Assembly (NCBI GenBank): GCA_965248435.1
Contig: OZ252100.1
Coordinates: forward strand, 608,001-672,000
DNA: 64,000 nt
Origin: Candidatus Latescibacterota bacterium
Lineage (GTDB): Bacteria; Latescibacterota; UBA2968; GCA-2709665
Direction of reading: 5' to 3'
Part shown: positions 12,834-24,718 of the stretch, one piece after another
Layout: every line of letters starts with the position of its first letter
Numbering within the stretch: the first letter of the stretch is position 1
Translations under genes and position numbers: made by a program
The notes under the pieces: model-generated
What the model was told of the DNA's origin: nothing
Database searches by the model: none
What the model saw: only the letters and a program-made list of their open reading frames with translations

Positions 12834-12865
12834 AACTTGACAATAAAGTATAGTTAAGTTATGTT
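12834..12865 (+). promoter_or_regulatory. Putative sigma70 promoter of the suf operon, overlapped by a candidate Rrf2/IscR-type operator
   Basis: TTGACA(12837)-N17-TATGTT(12860); imperfect palindrome AACTTGAC-N11-GTTAAGTT at 12834-12860. Confidence 0.6.
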
Positions 12866-12954
12866 TGGAGCTTGGAGGAGGGGCTTATTCACACGCTAAA
12901 CGTAAGAAAAGTTCCGCTTCTTCGCCACACATACTTTGCAGAAAGGGCCACTTG

Positions 12955-14421
12955 ATGAGCGGCGAAGTGAAACAACTGGAAGAACTCGCGGAGAGCGACT
13001 ACAAATACGGGTTCGTAACCAATATCGAGCAAGATTCGGCGCCGCCTGGGCTGAACGAAGACACCATCCGATTCATCTCCGCAAAGAAGAATGAGCCGGA
13101 ATGGCTCGTGGAATGGCGCCTTAAGGCCTATCACCACTGGCTCAAGATGGACGATCCGACGCGACGGCCCAAGAGCCGGCAGTGGGCCAGGGTCACCTAT
13201 CCCGACATCGACTATCAGGACATCATCTACTATTCCGCACCGAAAAAGGGGGGTGGACCGAGCAGCCTGGACGAGGTGGACCCGGAGCTCCTCTTGACTT
13301 ACGAGAAGCTGGGCATCCCACTCGAAGAACAGAAAATGCTGTCCGGCGTTGCGGTAGACGCCGTCTTCGACTCCGTTTCCGTGGCCACAACGTTCCAGGG
13401 AAAACTGGCCGAGGAGGGCATCATCTTCGGTCCCTTCTCCGAAGCCGTCCAGGAACATCCCGACCTTGTGCGGAAATACCTCGGGTCCGTGGTTCCCTAC
13501 AACGACAACTTTTTCGCTGCATTGAACTCCGCGGTGTTCACCGACGGTTCATTCTGCTACATCCCCAAAGGGGTGCGTTGCCCGATGGAGCTTTCCACCT
13601 ATTTTCGGATCAACGCATCCAAGACGGGCCAGTTCGAGCGGACCCTCATCATCGCCGACGAAGGCAGCTACGTCAGCTACCTCGAGGGATGTACCGCGCC
13701 GATGCGGGACGAAAACCAGCTCCACGCCGCCGTCGTCGAGCTGGTGACCCACGACGACGCGCAGATAAAGTATTCCACCATCCAGAACTGGTATCCCGGC
13801 AATGCAGAGGGTAAGGGTGGTATCTATAACTTCGTGACCAAGCGAGGCGCGTGCCGGGGTGCAAACTCCAAGATCTCCTGGACACAGGTCGAAACCGGCT
13901 CGGCCATCACCTGGAAGTATCCCAGCTGTATCCTTCAAGGCGATAACTCTGTCGGCGAATTTTATTCGATAGCCGTAACCACCGGGCATCAACAGGCCGA
14001 CACCGGGACCAAGATGATCCACATCGGCAAGAACACCAGAAGCACGGTCATATCGAAGGGGATTTCCGGCATCTACGGCCAGAATACCTACCGGGGCGGC
14101 GTAAAAGTCCTCAAGGGCGCAGACCGGGCAAGGAACTTTACACAGTGTGACTCGCTGCTCATCGGCGATCGCTGCGGAGCGCACACCTTCCCTTACATCG
14201 AGGTCAAGAATCCGACGGCGCAGGTGGAGCACGAGGCCTCCACATCCAAGATCGGCGAGGATCAGATCTTCTACTGTAACCAGCGAGGAATCCCGACCGA
14301 AGACGCCGTTTCTATGATCGTCAACGGCTTCTGCAAGGAGGTCCTTGCAGAGCTGCCCATGGAGTTCGCGGTCGAAGCCCAGAAACTGCTCGGCATCAGT
14401 CTCGAGGGCAGCGTCGGCTAA
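12955..14421 (+). CDS. sufB: Fe-S cluster assembly protein SufB
   Basis: [24 protein letters not shown] and C-terminal LEGSVG. Confidence 0.97.
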
Positions 14422-14438
14422 AACGAGTGGAGGAACGG

Positions 14439-15212
14439 ATGCTCGAAGTCAAGAATCTGCACGCAAGCGTCGAGGGCAATGAGATCCTTCGCGGCGTTAA
14501 CCTCAGCGTCGGCCGAGGCGAAATCCACGCGATTATGGGCCCGAACGGGTCAGGCAAGTCTACCCTGGCGCAGGTCCTGGCAGGACACGAGGCGTATGAA
14601 GTCACTGAAGGCGAGGTCATCTATCAGGGCGAAAACCTGCTGGAGCTTAACGCCGACGAGCGAGCACGGAAGGGGATCTTCATGGCCTTCCAGTACCCCG
14701 TGGAGATCCCGGGCGTCAACAGCGCCTATTTCCTCAAGGCGGCCCTGAACGAGGTCCGAAAAGCGCGGGGTGAGGAGGAACTGGATGCCCTCGATTTCCT
14801 GTCGCTGTCCAGGGAAAGGCTCAAACTGGTCGACATGGACGAAAGCCTTCTTAAGCGCTCCCTCAACGAGGGTTTTTCTGGGGGTGAAAAGAAGCGCAAC
14901 GAGATCTTTCAGATGGCGGTCCTGGAGCCCAAACTTGCGATTATGGACGAAACCGACTCCGGACTCGACATCGATGCGCTCAAGATCGTCGCGAACGGGG
15001 TGAACACCCTTCACGCACAGCAACCCAAAAGTTCGGTCGTCGTGGTGACCCACTATCAGAGACTGCTCGACTACATCGTTCCCGACCAGGTTCACGTCTT
15101 ACTCAACGGCCGAATCGTCAGATCGGGCGGGAAGGACCTGGCTCTGCAGCTGGAGGAAAAAGGTTACGATTGGATTCGGGAAGCGCACGAGGCAGAAGCC
15201 GTCACCGTATAG
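14439..15212 (+). CDS. sufC: Fe-S cluster assembly ATPase SufC
   Basis: [19 protein letters not shown] and [12 protein letters not shown]. Confidence 0.97.
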
Positions 15213-15227
15213 GGGAACAGCCTAACC

Positions 15228-16568
15228 ATGGCACAGCCCGCACCGGACGCAAAGGATGCCTACCTTTCTGCCTACAGGGAATTCGAGAAGGGTCTGAACG
15301 GAGCCAGCCGCTCGCCCATCGACAGACTGCGCAGGCAGGCTGTCGATCGGTTTGAAAGCCTCGAATTTCCGACGACGGCGGATGAGGCTTGGCGATACAC
15401 GAACGTGGCTCCGATTGTAAGCACCTCGTTCAAGCAGGTGATGAGCGGCACTCCGCCTCGGCTGTCTGCGAAGCAGATCAAGCCCTTCACGTTCAACGGG
15501 ACCCAATTGGTCTTCGTGAACGGCCAGTACGCTCCGGAGCTTTCTTCGCTCGAAAATCTGCCCCGTGGAGCCAAGGCTGTTTGCCTAAAGGCGGCTATCG
15601 ACTCCGACGATGACCTCCTGTCAAGGCACCTCGGTCAACACGCGGACTATGAAGCGCAGCCCTTTACCGCGCTCAACACTGCATTCGTCCACGACGGGGC
15701 GCTTATCCATGTTCCAGGCAACACGGTCGTCGAAGCACCGATCAACGTCCTCTTTGTTTCGACCGCGAACGGACAACCGACCGTCTCCCACCCGCGCTGC
15801 CTCGTTCTTGCCGAATCCCACAGCCAGGTTTCGATCGTCGAAACCTACGCGGGACTTGGGACAACCCCCTACTTCACGAATGCGGTTACCGAGATCGTAG
15901 CGGGTGAAAACGCGGTTGTCGACCACTATAAGCTCGTCCTGGAAGGCGACGAGGCCTTCCACGTCGCCACAACACAAACCTGCCAGGAGCACGCCGCCAA
16001 CGTCTCCACTCACACGATCTCCCTGGGGGGACGTCTCGTCCGCAACGACGTTAACGCCCGCCTGTCCGGCGAGGGAGGCGAGGCCACAGTGAATGGTTTC
16101 TACCTGCTCGACGGGGCGCAGCACGTGGATAATCACACGTTGATCGAGCACGTCGAACCTCACTGCACCAGCCACGAGCTCTTCAAGGGCATCCTGGACG
16201 GAAAATCCAAAGGGGTTTTTCGCGGAAAGATTTTCGTCCATCAGAAGGCACAAAAGACAGACGCCTACCAGACCAACCAGAACCTGCTCCTCTCCGGGGA
16301 TGCCGGAGTCACCGCCAAGCCGCAGCTCGAAATCTACGCAGACGACGTCAAGTGTTCTCACGGGGCCACGATCGGCCAGATGGATGAAAATGCCATCTTC
16401 TATCTCAGGTCTCGAGGTCTCGGCCCGGAAGCTGCCCGACAGATCCTGATCCAGGCATTTGCGGACGAAATACTCGACAGGATTCGTGTGGCTCCGGTCA
16501 GGGCGCGTCTAGGCGGTTGGGTCAGAGAAAAATTCGAACGCCTCCCGGGGCTGAGAAAGAAGCAGTGA
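15228..16568 (+). CDS. sufD: Fe-S cluster assembly protein SufD
   Basis: EAWRYT and PQLEIYADDVKCSHGAT. Confidence 0.95.
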   Translation: MAQPAPDAKDAYLSAYREFEKGLNGASRSPIDRLRRQAVDRFESLEFPTTADEAWRYTNVAPIVSTSFKQVMSGTPPRLSAKQIKPFTFNGTQLVFVNGQYAPELSSLENLPRGAKAVCLKAAIDSDDDLLSRHLGQHADYEAQPFTALNTAFVHDGALIHVPGNTVVEAPINVLFVSTANGQPTVSHPRCLVLAESHSQVSIVETYAGLGTTPYFTNAVTEIVAGENAVVDHYKLVLEGDEAFHVATTQTCQEHAANVSTHTISLGGRLVRNDVNARLSGEGGEATVNGFYLLDGAQHVDNHTLIEHVEPHCTSHELFKGILDGKSKGVFRGKIFVHQKAQKTDAYQTNQNLLLSGDAGVTAKPQLEIYADDVKCSHGATIGQMDENAIFYLRSRGLGPEAARQILIQAFADEILDRIRVAPVRARLGGWVREKFERLPGLRKKQ

Positions 16569-16572
16569 TGCG

Positions 16573-17850
16573 ATGAGCCTACCTTCCTACATCCTTACTG
16601 AAGATCCTTCCTGTCCGCTCGTCGAAAGGGCGGGGCCGTTCGACCCGGAAGCAGTCCGTTCTGATTTTCCAGTCCTGAAGCAGATCGTGAACGGCAAACC
16701 GCTCGTCTACCTGGACAATGCGGCGACGGCCCAGAAGCCGCGTCTCGTCATCGATGCACTCCAAAGCTACTACTCGTCTGAAAACGCCAACGTCCATCGG
16801 GGGGTTCACCACCTGAGCCAGGTCGCGACCGATTCCTACGAAGGCGCGCGACACAAAGTTCGACAGTTCCTGAATGCCGCACACGACAAAGAAATCGTCT
16901 TCGTGCGGGGAACGACCGAAGGAATCAATCTCGTGGCACAGACCTTCGGCAGGCAGAACGTGGGGCGGGGGGATGAAATCCTCATCTCCGAAATGGAGCA
17001 CCATTCCAACATCGTTCCCTGGCAGATTCTCTGTGAAGAAAATGGGGCGACCCTGCGCGTCATTCCCATTAATGATCGTGGGGAATTGCTGATGGAGGAG
17101 TACGAGAAGCTGCTCACCCCACGGACGAAGCTCGTTTCGGTCGCACACGTTTCAAATGTCCTCGGCACCCTCAATCCCGTTTACGACATCGTGAACCTCG
17201 CCCATGAGTGCGGTATCCCAGTGCTCTTTGACGGCGCGCAGGCCGTTCCCCATCTGGAGGTGGACGTCCAGGACCTGGATTGCGATTTCTACGTCTTCTC
17301 GAGCCACAAACTTTACGGCCCTACGGGAATCGGCGTACTCTATGGAAAGGCCGAACACCTTGAGGCCATGCCCCCCTATCAAGGTGGGGGAAGCATGATT
17401 CGATCTGTTACGTTCGAAAAAACAACCTATGCCGACCCCCCTAACAAGTTCGAGGCCGGCACGCCTCCAATCTCGGGCGGAATCGGGCTTGGGGCGGCCA
17501 TCGATTACCTGGCACAGATCGGTTTGGACCACGCCGCAGCCCATGAAGCGGACCTCCTGTCCTACGCCACGCAGGTCCTCTCAGAGATACCGGGCCTCAG
17601 ACTCATCGGTACGGCACGGGAAAAAGTGAGCGTGCTTTCGTTCGTACTCGAGGGAGTGCACCCCCACGATATCGGGACTATTCTTGATCAGCAAGGCGTC
17701 GCTGTCCGTGCCGGTCATCACTGCGCGCAGCCTTTGATGCGGCGCTACGGGATTGACGCGACAACCCGCGCAGCCATCGCGTGCTACAACACCAAAAGTG
17801 ACATCGATGCCATGGTCCGCGGTCTCTACAAAGTGCTGGAGATATTCTGA
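16573..17850 (+). CDS. sufS: Cysteine desulfurase SufS
   Basis: YLDNAATAQKP, SSHKLYGPTG and RAGHHCAQP. Confidence 0.95.
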   Translation: MSLPSYILTEDPSCPLVERAGPFDPEAVRSDFPVLKQIVNGKPLVYLDNAATAQKPRLVIDALQSYYSSENANVHRGVHHLSQVATDSYEGARHKVRQFLNAAHDKEIVFVRGTTEGINLVAQTFGRQNVGRGDEILISEMEHHSNIVPWQILCEENGATLRVIPINDRGELLMEEYEKLLTPRTKLVSVAHVSNVLGTLNPVYDIVNLAHECGIPVLFDGAQAVPHLEVDVQDLDCDFYVFSSHKLYGPTGIGVLYGKAEHLEAMPPYQGGGSMIRSVTFEKTTYADPPNKFEAGTPPISGGIGLGAAIDYLAQIGLDHAAAHEADLLSYATQVLSEIPGLRLIGTAREKVSVLSFVLEGVHPHDIGTILDQQGVAVRAGHHCAQPLMRRYGIDATTRAAIACYNTKSDIDAMVRGLYKVLEIF

Positions 17851-17851
17851 C

Positions 17852-18298
17852 ATGCTAGACTTGCGTGAGCTCTACCAACAGGTGATCCTGGATCACAACA
17901 AGAGCCCTCGCAACTTTAGAGAGCTTGTGGATGCCAATCGGTCGGCGGAGGGGTATAACCCCCTCTGTGGCGACAAATTTAGCGTCTATTTAAAGCTTGG
18001 AGATGGCCGGATCGACGATATTACGTTTCAAGGCTCGGGCTGTGCGATCTCGAAGGCCTCCGCCTCGATGATGACTTCCCTCTTAAAGGGACAGAGCGTG
18101 GAGGAAGCCGAAGCGCTCTTCGGAAAATTTCACGACCTGGTGGCGGGGGATACCTCCCCCGACCTCGAGGAGGTAGGCAAGCTTGCCGTGTTTGCAGGTG
18201 TGAAAGAATTCCCGACTCGCATCAAATGTGCAACCCTGGCGTGGCACACGCTGAAAGCAGCGCTCCGGGGAAAAGGGGATCACGTCACGACTGAATAG
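17852..18298 (+). CDS. sufU: SUF-system NifU-like sulfur transfer protein SufU
   Basis: LYQQVILDH, NPLCGD, GCAISKASAS and RIKCATL. Confidence 0.92.
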   Translation: MLDLRELYQQVILDHNKSPRNFRELVDANRSAEGYNPLCGDKFSVYLKLGDGRIDDITFQGSGCAISKASASMMTSLLKGQSVEEAEALFGKFHDLVAGDTSPDLEEVGKLAVFAGVKEFPTRIKCATLAWHTLKAALRGKGDHVTTE

Positions 18299-18316
18299 AA
18301 ATAGGAGGCAATCCTG

Positions 18317-18856
18317 GTGCTTAGAAGATTCCTAAATCGAGCCTTTCAGAGTACGATGAACCGACTATTCAATCTTCCGGCCGAGGCTCCGAAGCAGACC
18401 GAAACACCTCAAGCGGCGGATCCGAAAACGAAAGAGGAAGAGACGAGTCCGGTTAACGTCCAGGCCCTGACCTCCTACGGGGACCAGAAGTCGGAGGAGG
18501 TTGTAGAGCGCACGGCACAGCTAGAAGCCTCAGCTGAGCCGGGCGTGGACGCCACCGACGTGGAAAAGAAGATTGTGGAGATTATTGGCACGGTCTACGA
18601 CCCCGAGATTCCAGTAAACATCTATGAACTCGGACTGATCTACGAAACCCGTATCGAGCCATCTGGAATGGCGCACGTCAAGATGACCCTTACCTCTCCG
18701 AACTGCCCGGCCGCGGCCACACTCCCCGCGGAGGTAGAGAGCAAGGTTCGCAGCGTTCCTGGCGTCAGAGATGTCGTTCTGGACCTGGTCTTCGATCCAC
18801 CCTGGAATCCCGATATGATGTCCGAGGCCGCGAAACTCGAACTTGGCATGCTGTAA
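18317..18856 (+). CDS. sufT: SufT/DUF59 Fe-S maturation protein with an N-terminal extension
   Basis: DPEIPVNIYELGLIY, MTLTSPNCP and FDPPW. Confidence 0.88.
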   Translation: MLRRFLNRAFQSTMNRLFNLPAEAPKQTETPQAADPKTKEEETSPVNVQALTSYGDQKSEEVVERTAQLEASAEPGVDATDVEKKIVEIIGTVYDPEIPVNIYELGLIYETRIEPSGMAHVKMTLTSPNCPAAATLPAEVESKVRSVPGVRDVVLDLVFDPPWNPDMMSEAAKLELGML

Positions 18857-18889
18857 CAACCCGATTTTGGCACAGAACGGGGGCGGGAA

Positions 18890-19375
18890 ATGAAGCTGAG
18901 TGCTCAGGAAGAATACGGACTGCGGTGCCTCATTCAGATTGGTCGGAACGAACTCGAGGTCGGTGGTGACCTCACGATTGCGGAAATCAGCCAGGCGGAG
19001 GGGCTTTCCATCCCGAACGTGGCGAAGCTGATGCGCATCTTACGGCTAGGAGGCTTCGTGGATAGCGCCAGGGGCCAGGCCGGTGGCTACAGGCTTTCAA
19101 GACCCGCCGATCAGATCGTCGTGGGTGACGTCCTTGCGGTTCTGGGAGGACGTCTCTTTGGCCCGAACTTCTGCGATGAGCACACCGGAGTCGCCGAGCT
19201 CTGCACGCATTCTGTAGACTGCTCCGTCCGCTCGCTTTGGAACGCCGTGCAGTCCGTAATCGACCAAATGCTCGGCCGCGTTACACTCAAAGATCTGCTG
19301 GTTCGCGAGGAAGATGAACTGAGCGGATGCTTTCGGGATATGGCCGACGATGTTCTCCGGGTCGTTCCCAATTGA
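18890..19375 (+). CDS. Rrf2-family transcriptional regulator (three Cys, Fe-S type)
   Basis: EEYGLRCL, SARGQAGGYRL and C-x9-C-x5-C. Confidence 0.9.
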   Translation: MKLSAQEEYGLRCLIQIGRNELEVGGDLTIAEISQAEGLSIPNVAKLMRILRLGGFVDSARGQAGGYRLSRPADQIVVGDVLAVLGGRLFGPNFCDEHTGVAELCTHSVDCSVRSLWNAVQSVIDQMLGRVTLKDLLVREEDELSGCFRDMADDVLRVVPN

Positions 19376-19436
19376 CGCACTGCCTGATTCTTCGTATCAT
19401 ACTTACACTGCGATGATTCGATAACTGGAGATCGAA

Positions 19437-19958
19437 ATGGGCTTGGAGACGAACCTAGGCGAGAACGTAATTACCACCACGCTGGACAAGATGATCAATT
19501 GGGCTCGGAAGAGCTCGCTCTGGCCGATGCCCTTCGGCACAGCGTGCTGTGCCATCGAAATGATGGCTACGCTTTCTGGACGCTTCGACATGGCGCGTTT
19601 CGGGGCCGAGGCTGTCCGCTTCTCGCCGAGACAGTCGGATCTTCTGATCGTGTCAGGCCGAGTCTGTATCAAAATGATGCCTGTGCTGAAAAAGATCTAC
19701 GACCAGATGCCCGATCCAAAGTGGGTGATTTCGATGGGGGCCTGCGCCTCTTCCGGGGGGGTCTTCAACACATATACGATGGTTCAGGGTGTGGATCAAT
19801 TTCTTCCCGTCGATGTCTACGTCCCGGGTTGCCCACCTCGGCCGGAAGATCTGCTGTACGCGCTGATGAAAATTCAAGATAAGATAGACCGAGAACATCC
19901 AACTAAAAGTGTCGAACAGGGCAGTCAGGGCAAAGCTGCCTTACACGCCGGAGGATAA
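19437..19958 (+). CDS. nuoB: Orphan second NuoB-family [4Fe-4S] subunit
   Basis: [25 protein letters not shown] and GCPPRPE. Confidence 0.9.
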
Positions 19959-19960
19959 CA

Positions 19961-20542
19961 ATGGTAACCGTTACCGAGGTTGCACAGAAAGAAGTCGTCA
20001 GGCTCATGGAAGACCAGGAGGCCAAGTTGAACGGTGTCAGGGTGAAGGCCGAGGCCACGTCTCCGCTCCAGGCGAACTACCGGCTGTCTTTCCTCGGTGA
20101 GGGCCAGGAAACCCCCGAGGACGAGGTCATCCCGTTCGAGGGCTTCAATGTTTACATCGATTCAGAAAGCTCACCCTTCTGTCAGGACATCACGCTCGAC
20201 TTCGTGGACGGCTTGACCGGAAAGGGTTTCAAAATTGACAACCCGAACCGGGTGCCACCCCACTTGAAGGGCACGGCGGCCGAAAAGGTTCAGCAGATCA
20301 TCGACGACAAAATTAATCCAAGCGTGGCCTCCCACGGAGGGTTCGTGTCTTTGATAGACGTGAAGGACAACGTGGCTTATGTCCAGTTCGGAGGGGGCTG
20401 CCAGGGGTGTGGTATGGTCGACGTCACCCTCAAGCAAGGGGTTGAAGTCCTGATCAAAGAGGCCATACCGGAGATAGAGCAAATCATGGACATCACCGAC
20501 CACGCAGACGGAACAAATCCCTATTACCAGCCTTCGAAGTAA
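19961..20542 (+). CDS. nfuA: NfuA-like Fe-S carrier (degenerate A-type domain plus NifU C-terminal domain)
   Basis: GFKIDNPN, INPSVASHGG, GGGCQGC and DHADGTNPYY. Confidence 0.85.
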   Translation: MVTVTEVAQKEVVRLMEDQEAKLNGVRVKAEATSPLQANYRLSFLGEGQETPEDEVIPFEGFNVYIDSESSPFCQDITLDFVDGLTGKGFKIDNPNRVPPHLKGTAAEKVQQIIDDKINPSVASHGGFVSLIDVKDNVAYVQFGGGCQGCGMVDVTLKQGVEVLIKEAIPEIEQIMDITDHADGTNPYYQPSK

Positions 20543-20545
20543 GGG

Positions 20546-21982
20546 ATGCACACCAGAATCCGGAACAACGACGGCCCAGCTCTGAAAGTCGTTCTCATTT
20601 CGACTTACGAGTTGGGCCGTCAGCCTTTTGGCCTGGCCTCCCCCGCTGCCTGGCTGAGGCGTGCGGGGATGGAGGTCGCCACCGCCGACCTCTCAGTTGG
20701 AGATCTGCCCGAAGCAGCAGTAATCGCAGCTGATCTTGTTGCGTTCTACATCCCCATGTACACCGCAACCCGCCTTGCCGTGCCGGTCGTGGAACGCGTA
20801 AAGGCTGCAAACCCCCATACGCACATCTGCTTTTATGGTCTTTACGCCTCCGTAAACGAAATCTATCTACGAAATCTGGGCGCCCAAACCATCCTCGGGG
20901 GAGAGTTCGAAGCAGGTCTGCTCCACCTCGCCAACTCACTTCAGGAATCGCGAGTCATCCACGAAAGGCAGACGGGGCCGGTCGTCTCTCTAGAGCGGCA
21001 GGATTTCCTGATCCCCGACAGAAGCGATCTTCCCCCGCTCTCCAGGTATGCCCGGCTCAAGGACGTGGACGATTCAGAGAAACAGGTCGGCTATGTAGAG
21101 GCCAGCCGAGGCTGCAAACACCTCTGCCGACATTGTCCGGTCGTACCGGTTTACGCTGGGAAATTCAGGATCGTCCAGCCTGAAATCGTGTTGGAGGACA
21201 TCCGCCGGCAGGTGTCCGCGGGGGCAGAGCACATCACGTTCGGAGATCCCGACTTTTTTAACGGGATCGGTCACGCCCTTCCTCTGGTCGAGACCCTTCA
21301 AAGGGAATTCCCAGATCTGACCTACGATGTGACGATCAAGGTCGAGCACCTCCTCCAGCACGCGAAGCATATCCCAACCCTTCGGGAAACCGGATGCAAA
21401 ATCATCACGACGGCCGTGGAATCGCTCGACGATACCGTCCTTTTCAAGTTGAACAAAGGCCACACCCGCGCAGACTTTATCCAGGCGCTCCAGATCTGCC
21501 GAGAGCATCTCATCACTTTGAATCCCACATTCATTCCGTTTTCTCCGTGGACCACGGCTGAGGGATATGCAGATCTCCTGGAAACCCTCAGCGATCTGGA
21601 ACTGATCGAAGAGGTCGCACCCGTCCAGTTGGCCATTCGCCTCCTGATACCTGAAGGGTCTCTGCTCCTGGAGCTAGCTGACATTCAGGAAGTGATTGCG
21701 CCTTTCCATCCGCAAAGCCTGAGTTACCCCTGGAAGCACGCAGAGCCGCGCGTCGACCAGCTTCAGGAAGTCATCAGCGGGATCATCAAAAGAGGTTTAG
21801 CCGAAAAGGCGTCCAGGAAAGAGATCTTCGGAGCGGTCTGGGAAGAGGCAAACACTTTGGCGGACCGCGCTCCGCCCGTTTATGACCCGGCGCCCCAACC
21901 GTCCCTTGCTACAATCCCCTACCTGACCGAGCCATGGTATTGCTGAGCGGAACCGACCGAAGAGCAGTTTGCTCTTACGTAG
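20546..21982 (+). CDS. CUAEP-tail radical SAM selenoprotein (Sec at TGA 21944-21946), 478 aa
   Basis: ASRGCKHLCRHC radical SAM motif and an N-terminal B12-binding-like domain; the frame continues through TGA as WYC-U-AEPTEEQFALT to TAG at 21980-21982. Confidence 0.88.
21958..21979 (+). promoter_or_regulatory. Candidate bacterial SECIS hairpin
   Basis: CG-AAGAGCA-GTT-TGCTCTT-A-CG stem-loop; the loop G lies 21 nt after the in-frame UGA. Confidence 0.7.
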
Positions 21983-22020
21983 ATGTGCAGGCGATGTTGT
22001 GATTCATAGAAAGGCAACCG

Positions 22021-22359
22021 ATGACGATTCAAGAATTGGCAGCAAGGTTTCCAGAGATCCCGGAAGACCTGCACGACGAACCTCAGCTCGCTCGATTTGG
22101 AGAGGCCTTTGGCGAACAGCTTCAGGTCGCGCAGAACCCGGGCGCCTGCTCTTCCGAATACTCGGCAGGCAATCATTATTATCTCAAACTGATCGGGCCG
22201 CTCAGGATCTACATGTACGGTCTGTCGAGTCGCGAAAGGGCACTCTCGCAACTCCAGGAACTGCTCGACCAGTATCAGACTGACCCGGATGGCTTTCTTG
22301 CCGGACTGGTCCCGCAGGACGCCGCCGAACAAGAGCTCAGAGGTCCGGGCTGCCAATGA
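22021..22359 (+). CDS. Small hypothetical protein (112 aa; GAC motif and C-terminal GPGCQ)
   Basis: ATG after GAAAGG, 38 nt downstream of the extended radical SAM stop. Confidence 0.75.
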   Translation: MTIQELAARFPEIPEDLHDEPQLARFGEAFGEQLQVAQNPGACSSEYSAGNHYYLKLIGPLRIYMYGLSSRERALSQLQELLDQYQTDPDGFLAGLVPQDAAEQELRGPGCQ

Positions 22360-22366
22360 CAACGAC

Positions 22367-23608
22367 TCACCGGTCTGAAATACCGATTCCGAGCATCCCA
22401 TAGGACTTCCTCAATGCGACCTCCACCCGCTCGGGCGAACCCTCCCGTGCGAAGATAAACCCGAGGTATTTCGATCCTTCGGGCAGGGGTTCGACCCGCT
22501 CGCCGATCGGGATCGTCACGGCGAGATCTTCGATCCCCGGAACCGCTCTCGCTGACTCCAGTCCCGTCACTTTTTCGAGCCGCCCCTTCGCTGGAACAGG
22601 GATCATCATCACGCCGGACGCGTCCGAACGGGACTGCACGGCGCTTTCGATCTCCAGCCCCAATGCGTGTCGAATGATCAACGTCTCCAGCGACATCCCC
22701 GCCCCGAACTTCAAGGTCCTCGAGCACAGCCCACCGATTGAACGGCCTGCGACCTCCAAGATCCACACACCCTTTGAGTTGACTCTGAGTTCCGCGTGGA
22801 CTGGTCCCTCTTCGAGGCCCAGCGCCGAAGAGGCCTCTACAGTCGCTTCCCGTATGTCCTCCTGAAGGCCGGCGTCCAGCCGGGACGGTGTAATGTAGAA
22901 GGTTTCCTCGAAGTAGGGACCTTCGAGCGGGTCTGGTTTGTCAAACAGGGCAAGGACGTGGAGCTCCCCCCGGATCAACAATCCCTCGAGCGCGACCTCG
23001 CTCCCCGGGATAAAATCTTCAACCAGGATTTCATTCGCTGGCAATTCACCTTTTCCCTTCACATCATCTCTTCGAAGAAACGCCGTGATCCGCTCAAAGG
23101 CCGACACAAAAGAACCCGGATCATCCGCTCGAATCACGCCGCGGCTGGCGCTGAGGAAGATCGGCTTCAAGACACACGGGAATCGAATCTCCTCGGCGAC
23201 TTCGTCCGGATTAGTCTCAATTGAAAAAGGCCTGAACCCAGGAGAGGGCAGGCCTTTCGCCGCGAATTTCTGTCTCATCAGAAGCTTGTTTCGCGATGCC
23301 TGAACGGAGGAAGCGGAATTGTGGCGCAACCCCAGGGCCTCGTTCGCGACGGACGCGAGCACGACCGAGTCGTCATCCACACCCAGGACTGCGTCGAGCT
23401 GATATCGTTCGGCGAACTCCAGAATCTCCTGGGCTGCTACCCCGGGTCTCGAAAAATCCAACGCGATCGTCTTCCCCGGAGTCAGGTCGGCCAGGGCCTG
23501 GCGGCGGTCGGATCCCACGACCACCTCGACTTCAAGCGCCTCCGCCGCCTTCATGAAATCGGGCGCTCGATACGTGGTTGTAGGCAGTAGGAGCAGGACG
23601 CGGCCCAT
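22367..23608 (-). CDS. ATP-grasp domain protein (L-amino-acid ligase-like)
   Basis: RNKLLMRQ, FPCVLKP, SASRGVIRAD, EDFIPGSEVALE, HAELRV and LEVAGRSIGG. Confidence 0.9.
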   Translation of the reverse strand: MGRVLLLLPTTTYRAPDFMKAAEALEVEVVVGSDRRQALADLTPGKTIALDFSRPGVAAQEILEFAERYQLDAVLGVDDDSVVLASVANEALGLRHNSASSVQASRNKLLMRQKFAAKGLPSPGFRPFSIETNPDEVAEEIRFPCVLKPIFLSASRGVIRADDPGSFVSAFERITAFLRRDDVKGKGELPANEILVEDFIPGSEVALEGLLIRGELHVLALFDKPDPLEGPYFEETFYITPSRLDAGLQEDIREATVEASSALGLEEGPVHAELRVNSKGVWILEVAGRSIGGLCSRTLKFGAGMSLETLIIRHALGLEIESAVQSRSDASGVMMIPVPAKGRLEKVTGLESARAVPGIEDLAVTIPIGERVEPLPEGSKYLGFIFAREGSPERVEVALRKSYGMLGIGISDR

Positions 23609-23622
23609 TGAGGTCGATCCGC

Positions 23623-23997
23623 CTATCCTCGATCAACTCCGGCCGGTTCCTCTGTCTTCTTCTTTTCCCGTTTCTCTCGAAACTCTCTGACCTTTTTGAT
23701 CACATCGGGGGCCAGTTCCAGGAGCTTTCGAAAGGACATATCACCCTCCTGAAGCGGAAGGAGCTGCGCCTTACCGTCGCGAATCACGATAAAGGCGACC
23801 GGTTCGACTGAGCCGCCTCCCCCGGTTCCGCTCCCCCGGTCCCCTCTGTTCCCCCCGGCACCAAAACCGAAGGAAATCTTGGAAACGGGAACGATCACCG
23901 TCTCCCCGACAACCATCGGTTCTCCGATCACGGTTTCCGTCTTAACGATCTGCCGAAACTCCTGCATCATCGTCTTGATCAAGTCCTCGACCGACAT
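23623..23997 (-). CDS. GerW/YtfJ-family protein
   Basis: TVIGEP...IVPVSKISFGFGAGG...GGGGSVEPVAFIVI. Confidence 0.85.
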   Translation of the reverse strand: MSVEDLIKTMMQEFRQIVKTETVIGEPMVVGETVIVPVSKISFGFGAGGNRGDRGSGTGGGGSVEPVAFIVIRDGKAQLLPLQEGDMSFRKLLELAPDVIKKVREFREKREKKKTEEPAGVDRG

Positions 23998-24019
23998 GCC
24001 ACCTCCTTCTTAACGGCTG

Positions 24020-24718
24020 TCAATTCGTTCTGCCGATCCTTTTATGTCTCCATCGATTCCAGTAGTAGGATAAGCCGACCCCGCCCGCTTGACAAGCCAG
24101 ACAGGCCACTGCCCACAAGATTCTGTGCAAATAAACGGCCAGCTCCACTTCGGCTTCCCCTTCCAGCCGTTCCTGATCGAAATCGGGGGCCAGAGCCAAA
24201 TCTACTCCGGGTCCCGTCGCGCCTGAGATCGCCAACGAGTAGCCGAATACTTGACCCGTGGTGACCGGATCTGAAGCCCCGAACACGACATCACACGACA
24301 GCCTGCGGACTCGAAATCCGCCGATCAGGCGCATCAGGAACCGCAAGACAGATCTTCTGAGTCTCTTGAAAAAGTACCAAATCGGACCCGCGGCGAACAG
24401 CCTCTGTTTCAGACCGGGTGTCTCCTGCTCTGGCTCGATCTCGGCCGGTTCAGCGGTTTCAACGGGCTCAACCGGCTCGGGAACCGGCTTCTTTCCACGC
24501 TTCAGATGGAAATTCCAGGGCGCCCAACGCCAAACCATCGGGCCCAAACGTAGTCTCTTCTCCTCATAGATGACCTGGATTCCGCAGAGTCCGTTCCACG
24601 GCCGCACCCATCCTCGAAGCAGACCGGCCTCCGGTGAGTATTGCCCCCATCCTCCCAAGCGGACCGGGAGGAAGAGCAGCAGGAGAATCGCGATAAAGAG
24701 GAGAAGAATCACTGTCAC
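24020..24718 (-). CDS. DUF2953 (YtfI-like) membrane-anchored protein
   Basis: FGASDPVTTGQVFG...PDF motif; N-terminal hydrophobic segment; usual partner of ytfJ. Confidence 0.7.
   Translation of the reverse strand: MTVILLLFIAILLLLFLPVRLGGWGQYSPEAGLLRGWVRPWNGLCGIQVIYEEKRLRLGPMVWRWAPWNFHLKRGKKPVPEPVEPVETAEPAEIEPEQETPGLKQRLFAAGPIWYFFKRLRRSVLRFLMRLIGGFRVRRLSCDVVFGASDPVTTGQVFGYSLAISGATGPGVDLALAPDFDQERLEGEAEVELAVYLHRILWAVACLACQAGGVGLSYYWNRWRHKRIGRTN

Follow-up and report, generated by a model that had tools for sequence, protein, structure and literature searches.

A TGA triplet near the 3′ end of a radical S-adenosylmethionine (SAM) gene of a Candidatus Latescibacterota bacterium raises two questions: whether the codon ends the protein or is read as selenocysteine (Sec, U), and what reaction an enzyme with the resulting Cys-Sec tail would catalyze. 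We analyzed this gene within a 64,000-nt stretch of contig OZ252100.1 (positions 608,001 to 672,000, forward strand), hereafter the window, in whose coordinates its features are given. From an ATG at 20546 the frame reads ...PYLTEPWYC up to the TGA at 21944–21946 and then AEPTEEQFALT up to a TAG at 21980–21982, and the read-through protein carries the tail WYCUAEP at residues 464–470. A mechanical list of open reading frames (ORFs) gives a 466-residue (466-aa) ORF at 20546..21946, which means that a standard gene caller truncates the radical SAM protein at Cys466. We find that the UGA is very probably decoded as selenocysteine under the direction of a hairpin just downstream, in an otherwise ordinary member of the NCBIfam family NF040546. 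A prior sequence-only reading of this DNA had put forward the 11-codon extension to the TAG, a 478-aa enzyme with a vicinal Cys-Sec tail, its truncation by gene callers, and a stem-loop at 21960–21976 that begins 13 nt after the UGA and has a G in its loop; each of these reappeared in our analysis, and the loop G proved invariant.

Decoding of the in-frame UGA

Profile searches of the genome found selA (568.6 bits), selB (370.8 bits), selD (371.7 bits) and tRNA-Sec (74.3 bits), all above their cut-offs, and ARAGORN called a tRNA-SeC with anticodon tca. Looking for selA, selB, selC and selD had been proposed as a check on the selenocysteine reading, and selA, selB, selD and the tRNA-Sec proved to lie together in one cluster of the window's genome (G000:C1:1062487-1067069). 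The selD gene of this cluster (G000:C1:1062705-1063625, minus strand; locus L018) contains one in-frame TGA, indicating that SelD is itself a selenoprotein in this genome.

A scan of one genome per species gave at least 569 confirmed relatives of the radical SAM protein, from which 80 loci were kept. The tail could be read in 80 cases, the window and 79 loci (L055, which runs off its contig, was left out). The two dyad positions are occupied by Cys-Cys in 50 tails, by Cys-Sec in 24 (window included) and by Sec-Sec in 6. The dyad is followed in all 80 tails by (A/S/T)EP and further on by a near-invariant Gln (AEPxxxQ); A468, E469, P470 and Q474 of the window protein are invariant or nearly so in the family alignment. 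These results bear out the expectation from the sequence-only reading that an alignment across the TGA would show Cys codons in some members and a conserved AEP afterwards. An alignment of the TGA forms showed that the nucleotides 3′ of the TGA vary mainly at wobble positions. All 18 genomes searched from the same taxonomic family carry a gene that exceeds the cut-off and has exactly one TGA; none of 12 genomes from the order's other family has such a gene. Two sequencing runs of one sample yielded contigs identical to the window, which are possibly its own source.

Parsimony on a 76-sequence tree placed 13 changes of dyad state, revealing repeated switching between Sec and Cys. We considered whether the Cys forms are explained by loss of the Sec machinery and rejected this: tRNA-Sec is present in four of the five Cys-form genomes tested, so such a loss does not by itself account for the Cys forms.

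The six Sec-Sec homologues (L030, L032, L034, L037, L039 and L053) are Anaerolineae-type sequences with two adjacent TGA codons and the tail WY-U-U-AEPF.EQFASDLV (for example, L030:7363-7413). They keep the same conserved tail and hairpin, form a single clade nested within the Cys-Sec forms, and come from genomes in which tRNA-Sec was found wherever tested (5/5). Genes for CBS, tyrosine-phosphatase, major facilitator superfamily (MFS), VKOR, methyltransferase and OsmC proteins lie near these loci, which lack an adjacent ligase. If the double recoding is real, the subclade would hold a rare natural vicinal diselenol site. A literature search on adjacent or tandem selenocysteines returned no title on a bacterial Sec-Sec site among the matches listed.

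The bacterial selenocysteine insertion sequence (SECIS) is a stem-loop shortly after the UGA with a G in its apical loop, and the window hairpin has both properties. Its perfect 7-bp core (Table 1) is extended by two further C-G/G-C pairs and one bulge, so that the whole element starts 11 nt past the UGA. A hairpin in the same register is present in all 30 TGA forms, the window and 29 loci. The median energy of these forms is −9.05 kcal/mol, whereas the 50 Cys-Cys forms have a median of −3.75 kcal/mol (Mann-Whitney p = 1e-11, kinship ignored). Base pairing across the 7-bp helix holds in 84.8% of the cells of the 30-sequence alignment, versus 77.6% after shuffling (0/500 shuffles reach the observed value) and 40–53% with a slid partner. 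Cells in which both partners have changed number 17 against an expectation of 5.6 (0/500 shuffles reach it), indicating compensatory changes in the helix.

Several observations pull the other way. The 81-nt stretch folded alone is not exceptional relative to shuffled sequences (z = −0.86), so the case for hairpin function is made by comparison with other sequences. The energy test is not corrected for phylogeny, and some Cys-Cys forms retain the hairpin (L097, L100). Moreover, the loop letters fall in the codon of the conserved Gln474, and part of the conservation of the hairpin is therefore at the protein level. An Rfam scan of 21800–22100 at E values up to 10 returned two chance-level matches only and no SECIS family.

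The end of the gene also stands out at the nucleotide level. In each of three metagenome runs, about 30 contigs belonging to other organisms matched 21912–21976 (the 60-nt tail plus hairpin segment), with at least 85% identity in this segment only. The tail and hairpin segment is an island of nucleotide conservation. Among the matches listed for contigs that cover it, we found two synonymous differences, at 21940 and 21943.

Family membership and kinship with ArsL

The read-through protein matches NF040546, "CUAEP/CCAEP-tail radical SAM (seleno)protein", with 628.5 bits (cut-off 500, equivalog) and over its full length, residues 15–476 aligning with profile positions 1–467 of 468. Both hallmarks of the family, the C-(U/C)-AEP tail and the CxxxCxxC motif, are present, and the window protein differs from the family in no way of note. 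Among 76 family sequences, the cluster residues Cys190 and Cys194 are Cys in every one and Cys197 is Cys in 75. Pfam Radical_SAM is found with 53 bits; B12-binding (PF02310) reaches 20.4 bits, under its cut-off of 32.1, and by this score the protein is not classed as a cobalamin-dependent radical SAM enzyme. A family of this name had been mentioned in the sequence-only reading, rightly so. Because catalogues already list the family, and list it as containing selenoproteins, this kind of selenoprotein is known, and the novelty of the locus had been overrated.

NF040546 spans several phyla and has no assigned function. The family was called uncharacterised, and its rare CU motif remarked upon, in the available part of a preprint (bioRxiv 10.1101/2022.07.06.499078); literature searches for "CUAEP" and "NF040546" found no other relevant paper. 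The annotation problem is routine: gene callers cut the protein at Cys466 and the family model corrects this. The gene nonetheless keeps its interest because its reaction is probably unusual.

The same truncation is seen in Thermomicrobium roseum DSM 5159, where the coding sequence listed in PLSDB for megaplasmid NC_011961.1 (L112:5935-7371) ends at the TGA and read-through gives SWFC-U-AEPLED... A pyridoxal phosphate-dependent aminotransferase gene and an MFS transporter gene, and no ligase gene, adjoin this locus. T. roseum DSM 5159 is a cultured strain and therefore a candidate for experiments.

The second-best family match of the window protein is the ArsL model NF040542 (282.6 bits, residues 16–406); the homology takes in the radical SAM core together with the Rossmann-like domain at the N-terminus. 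Plasmid-borne proteins with the ArsL-type tail RCCLKC are 33–35% identical over 85–92% of the query. According to the available text of one report, ArsL generates a 3-amino-3-carboxypropyl (ACP) radical rather than a 5′-deoxyadenosyl radical (10.1101/2024.02.01.577332). A second report, in the part accessible to us, describes binding of arsenite by the Cys-rich tail, with all three tail cysteines taking part (10.64898/2026.04.29.721666). Among canonical-fold radical SAM enzymes, ArsL alone is known to make an ACP radical, and the CUAEP family is its closest kin.

An alignment brought together 76 CUAEP-family proteins and 23 of the ArsL type. The three cluster cysteines are shared by all of the latter (23/23), and Cys466-Sec467 stands opposite the CC of RCCLKC, the window protein using Sec where the ArsL tail does not. 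The third tail Cys of ArsL, present in 21 of the 23 ArsL-type sequences, aligns with Pro470, which is Pro in 76/76 CUAEP sequences. The converse holds at residue 284, which is Cys in 75 of the 76 CUAEP sequences; among the ArsL-type sequences it is Val in 18, Leu in 3 and Cys in 2. We infer from this reciprocal pattern that both families retain a three-ligand soft site in which one ligand has moved, Cys284 being the candidate third ligand in CUAEP proteins.

One of the two ArsL-type sequences that share Cys284, a Pedobacter protein (L135:389-1636), lacks the third tail Cys, its last residues being KCCIKG. By these residues it resembles an intermediate form linking the tails of the two families.

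The two families also share a neighbour. In the window the radical SAM gene converges with a gene for an ATP-grasp protein (ATP-grasp_4 PF13535, 105.9 bits; LAL_C2 PF18603, 53.9 bits; ATPgrasp_N PF18130, 34 bits), a domain composition that types it as an L-amino acid ligase; it reached no NCBIfam model. A ligase was found in 48 of the 72 loci with at least 1500 nt downstream, a lower bound because a spurious antisense ORF masked the ligase in L094. It accompanies 35/45 Cys-Cys, 13/21 Cys-Sec and 0/6 Sec-Sec loci, usually with the same orientation as the radical SAM gene and directly 3′ of it. ORF clustering over the 80 loci identified it as the sole partner that crosses phyla. On the ArsL side, an ATP-grasp gene is present in all four plasmid loci opened (L113–L116: Priestia, Pantoea, Alicyclobacillus, Bacillus cereus) and in 14 of 19 genome loci (L117–L135). 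The Alicyclobacillus protein, searched against the window's genome, has the ligase beside our gene as its best match (E 2.5e-20; next, 8e-6). The window and Priestia ligases are both closest to BL00235 (129.5 and 90.2 bits); among solved relatives of the window ligase, BL00235 (3vot) is the best match; BacD scores 69 bits. BL00235 produces Met-Gly and Met-Met, as given in the available portion of PMC6920838. Methionine is an ACP-heteroatom amino acid. A literature search on arsinothricin and ATP-grasp found no paper linking an ATP-grasp ligase to arsinothricin clusters.

ArsL-type loci often also carry genes for a CMD-family protein, a CobW-type GTPase, an MFS transporter, ArsM and an aquaporin.

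An AlphaFold2 model of the protein has a mean local confidence (pLDDT) of 93.7 and a pTM of 0.92, with pLDDT values of 84–86 in the tail. Its best fold matches are AprD4 (6fd2, TMq 0.64), TsrM, OxsB and MgmA (6wte; 5ul3; 9ccb), radical SAM enzymes with an N-terminal B12-binding-like domain and the same two-domain layout; identities are 14–18%, and none of them has a Cys-Sec tail. AprD4 is cobalamin-independent. MiaB and RimO are also among the fold matches, and no ArsL structure is. A sequence search of the PDB returned 9ccb only (E 4e-5).

A candidate reaction and its alternatives

What, then, might the enzyme do? Our tentative answer is that it works like ArsL, its closest characterised relative. 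By analogy, the reduced [4Fe-4S] cluster on Cys190, Cys194 and Cys197 would cleave the Cγ-S bond of SAM to give an ACP radical. A soft heteroatom (As, Se or S) held by Cys466-Sec467 and Cys284 would take up this radical. The methionine- or glutamate-like amino acid so formed would go to the BL00235-type L-amino-acid ligase encoded next door, which would build it into a dipeptide. Cluster supply would fall to the NfuA-like carrier and the SUF operon encoded upstream, and Sec in place of Cys would provide a softer, more nucleophilic ligand. Kinship with ArsL would in this way give a more concrete form to the metal(loid)-binding or redox role suggested for the tail from the sequence alone.

The evidence is not all on this side. 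The window protein scores below the NF040542 cut-off of 450 and is not an ArsL by that model; its C-U-AEP tail follows a linker about 45 residues longer and differs from RCCLKC. The ligase is not adjacent in 24 of the 72 loci, including all six Sec-Sec loci and T. roseum, and the ArsL-type genome loci that share it come mostly from Bacillota and are therefore not independent. Unlike the ArsL-type loci, the window gene has none of the arsenic genes looked for nearby (arsM, arsR, channel/aquaporin, ArsN), and no arsM, arsR, aquaporin or ACR3 occurs among the recurrent clusters of the 80 neighbourhoods. As no ars genes recur, arsenic is not indicated, and we put the chance of an ArsL-like enzyme somewhat short of even. 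A more specific form of the proposal, that the radical SAM and ligase pair, found across hundreds of soil and sediment species, makes an unseen ACP-derived amino acid (C-Se, C-S or C-As) on Cys284, Cys466 and Sec467 and then a dipeptide from it, is conceivable yet rather unlikely.

The tail could instead serve redox chemistry in a canonical radical SAM enzyme, in which a 5′-deoxyadenosyl radical abstracts H from an amino acid or dipeptide linked to the ligase and the Cys-Sec tail, as H-atom or electron donor, closes to a selenenylsulfide. The C-terminal Cys-Sec of thioredoxin reductase and the C-terminal Cys pair of ribonucleotide reductase offer analogues. The fold is closest to 5′-deoxyadenosyl-radical enzymes (AprD4, OxsB, MiaB), the dyad switches freely between Cys-Sec and Cys-Cys as is typical for selenoprotein redox sites, and no metalloid genes recur in the 80 neighbourhoods. 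Weighing against such a donor, ArsL, the sole characterised close relative, forms no 5′-deoxyadenosyl radical and holds the substrate atom with the aligned CC pair, so far as the available parts of the two ArsL reports go, and the reciprocal pattern of Cys284 and the third tail Cys would be left unexplained. We regard a redox tail as possible, with the balance of chances clearly against it.

Sulfur donation fares worse. Here Cys284, Cys466 and Sec467 would ligate a sacrificial auxiliary iron-sulfur (Fe-S) cluster that gives up sulfur, as in LipA, BioB and MiaB, and is rebuilt by an Nfu-type carrier, a role in which NfuA serves LipA. Three conserved Cys/Sec residues are available besides CxxxCxxC, MiaB and RimO are among the fold matches, the Fe(2+)-trafficking gene yggX occurs in 24 of the 80 loci, and in the window an NfuA-like gene lies 3 nt upstream, preceded by a SUF operon that includes sufS. 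Two neighbouring residues, however, rarely bind one cluster, every radical SAM enzyme needs cluster delivery, and just 6 of the 80 loci have an adjacent Nfu gene. The aligned cysteines of ArsL, moreover, bind arsenic and no cluster in the accessible part of the report. An auxiliary cluster therefore strikes us as improbable.

Finally, that the TGA is a true stop, a sequencing error or a pseudogene lesion, with the protein ending at Cys466 and the hairpin otherwise used, would suit the unexceptional single-sequence fold and the missing Rfam match, but is very hard to sustain against amino-acid-level conservation past the TGA with variation at wobble positions, Cys at that position in 50/80 tails, retention of the TGA in 18/18 genomes of the same family, identical contigs in two runs, and the Sec machinery of the genome.

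Were the radical SAM and ligase pair to make such an ACP-derived product, noncanonical SAM cleavage of the ArsL type would be a widespread chemistry and not an arsenic curiosity. Handles for testing the reaction are the reciprocal pattern of Cys284 and the third tail Cys, the BL00235-type ligase common to both families, and the cultured T. roseum.

The surrounding genes

Upstream of the radical SAM gene lie, on the same strand, a SUF operon, a lone NuoB-like gene and the NfuA-like gene (Table 1). We asked whether SUF linkage is a general feature of the family and rejected this: an NfuA-like gene precedes the radical SAM gene in 6 of the 80 loci, and sufS is adjacent in 5.

Table 1. Elements of the radical SAM gene and neighbouring genes, in window coordinates.
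Feature	Position	Strand	Details
CUAEP-tail radical SAM gene, probable selenoprotein	20546..21982	+	478 aa with TGA read as U; Sec467
TGC-TGA, predicted vicinal Cys466-Sec467 dyad	21941..21946	+	TGC 21941–21943, TGA 21944–21946
SECIS-type hairpin	21958..21979	+	perfect 7-bp core AAGAGCA-GUU-UGCUCUU at 21960–21976, loop GUU; overlaps codons 472–478
CxxxCxxC motif, radical SAM [4Fe-4S] cluster	21113..21136	+	CKHLCRHC (Cys190, Cys194, Cys197); read from sequence
Cys284 codon	21395..21397	+	family-specific conserved Cys, candidate third ligand; Cys in 75/76 family sequences
L-amino-acid-ligase-type ATP-grasp gene	22367..23608	-	convergent with the radical SAM gene; conserved partner
NfuA-like Fe-S carrier gene	19961..20542	+	TIGR03341 NfuA, E 1.7e-46, below cut-off; stops 3 nt ahead of the radical SAM start
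Lone NuoB-like (Oxidored_q6) Fe-S protein gene	19437..19958	+	2 nt before nfuA
sufB, sufC, sufD, sufS, sufU, SufT-like gene, Rrf2 regulator	12865..19375	+	NCBIfam matches; directly upstream, same strand
112-aa ORF	22021..22359	+	no Pfam or NCBIfam match

The NuoB-like gene, flanked by the Rrf2 regulator gene and nfuA, occupies this position in the window and in L024 only, among the 80 loci, and has no other nuo genes beside it; its product is a possible electron carrier. A promoter-like site, identified by consensus match only, precedes it at 19372–19400.

The 112-aa ORF between the radical SAM and ligase genes is conserved at 53–77% identity in 17 of the 18 genomes of the same taxonomic family (two copies in G004) and is a real gene of this bacterial family. 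As part of the radical SAM and ligase cassette it was rejected: only G000 and G001 have it beside the radical SAM gene, and L022–L024 leave no room for it.

On the far side of the ligase, a gene of the GerW/YtfJ-like "sporulation" family and a weakly matching DUF2953 gene adjoin it at 23623–24718 on the minus strand. The nearest relatives of the genome carrying this GerW/YtfJ-like gene are Latescibacterota metagenome-assembled genomes.

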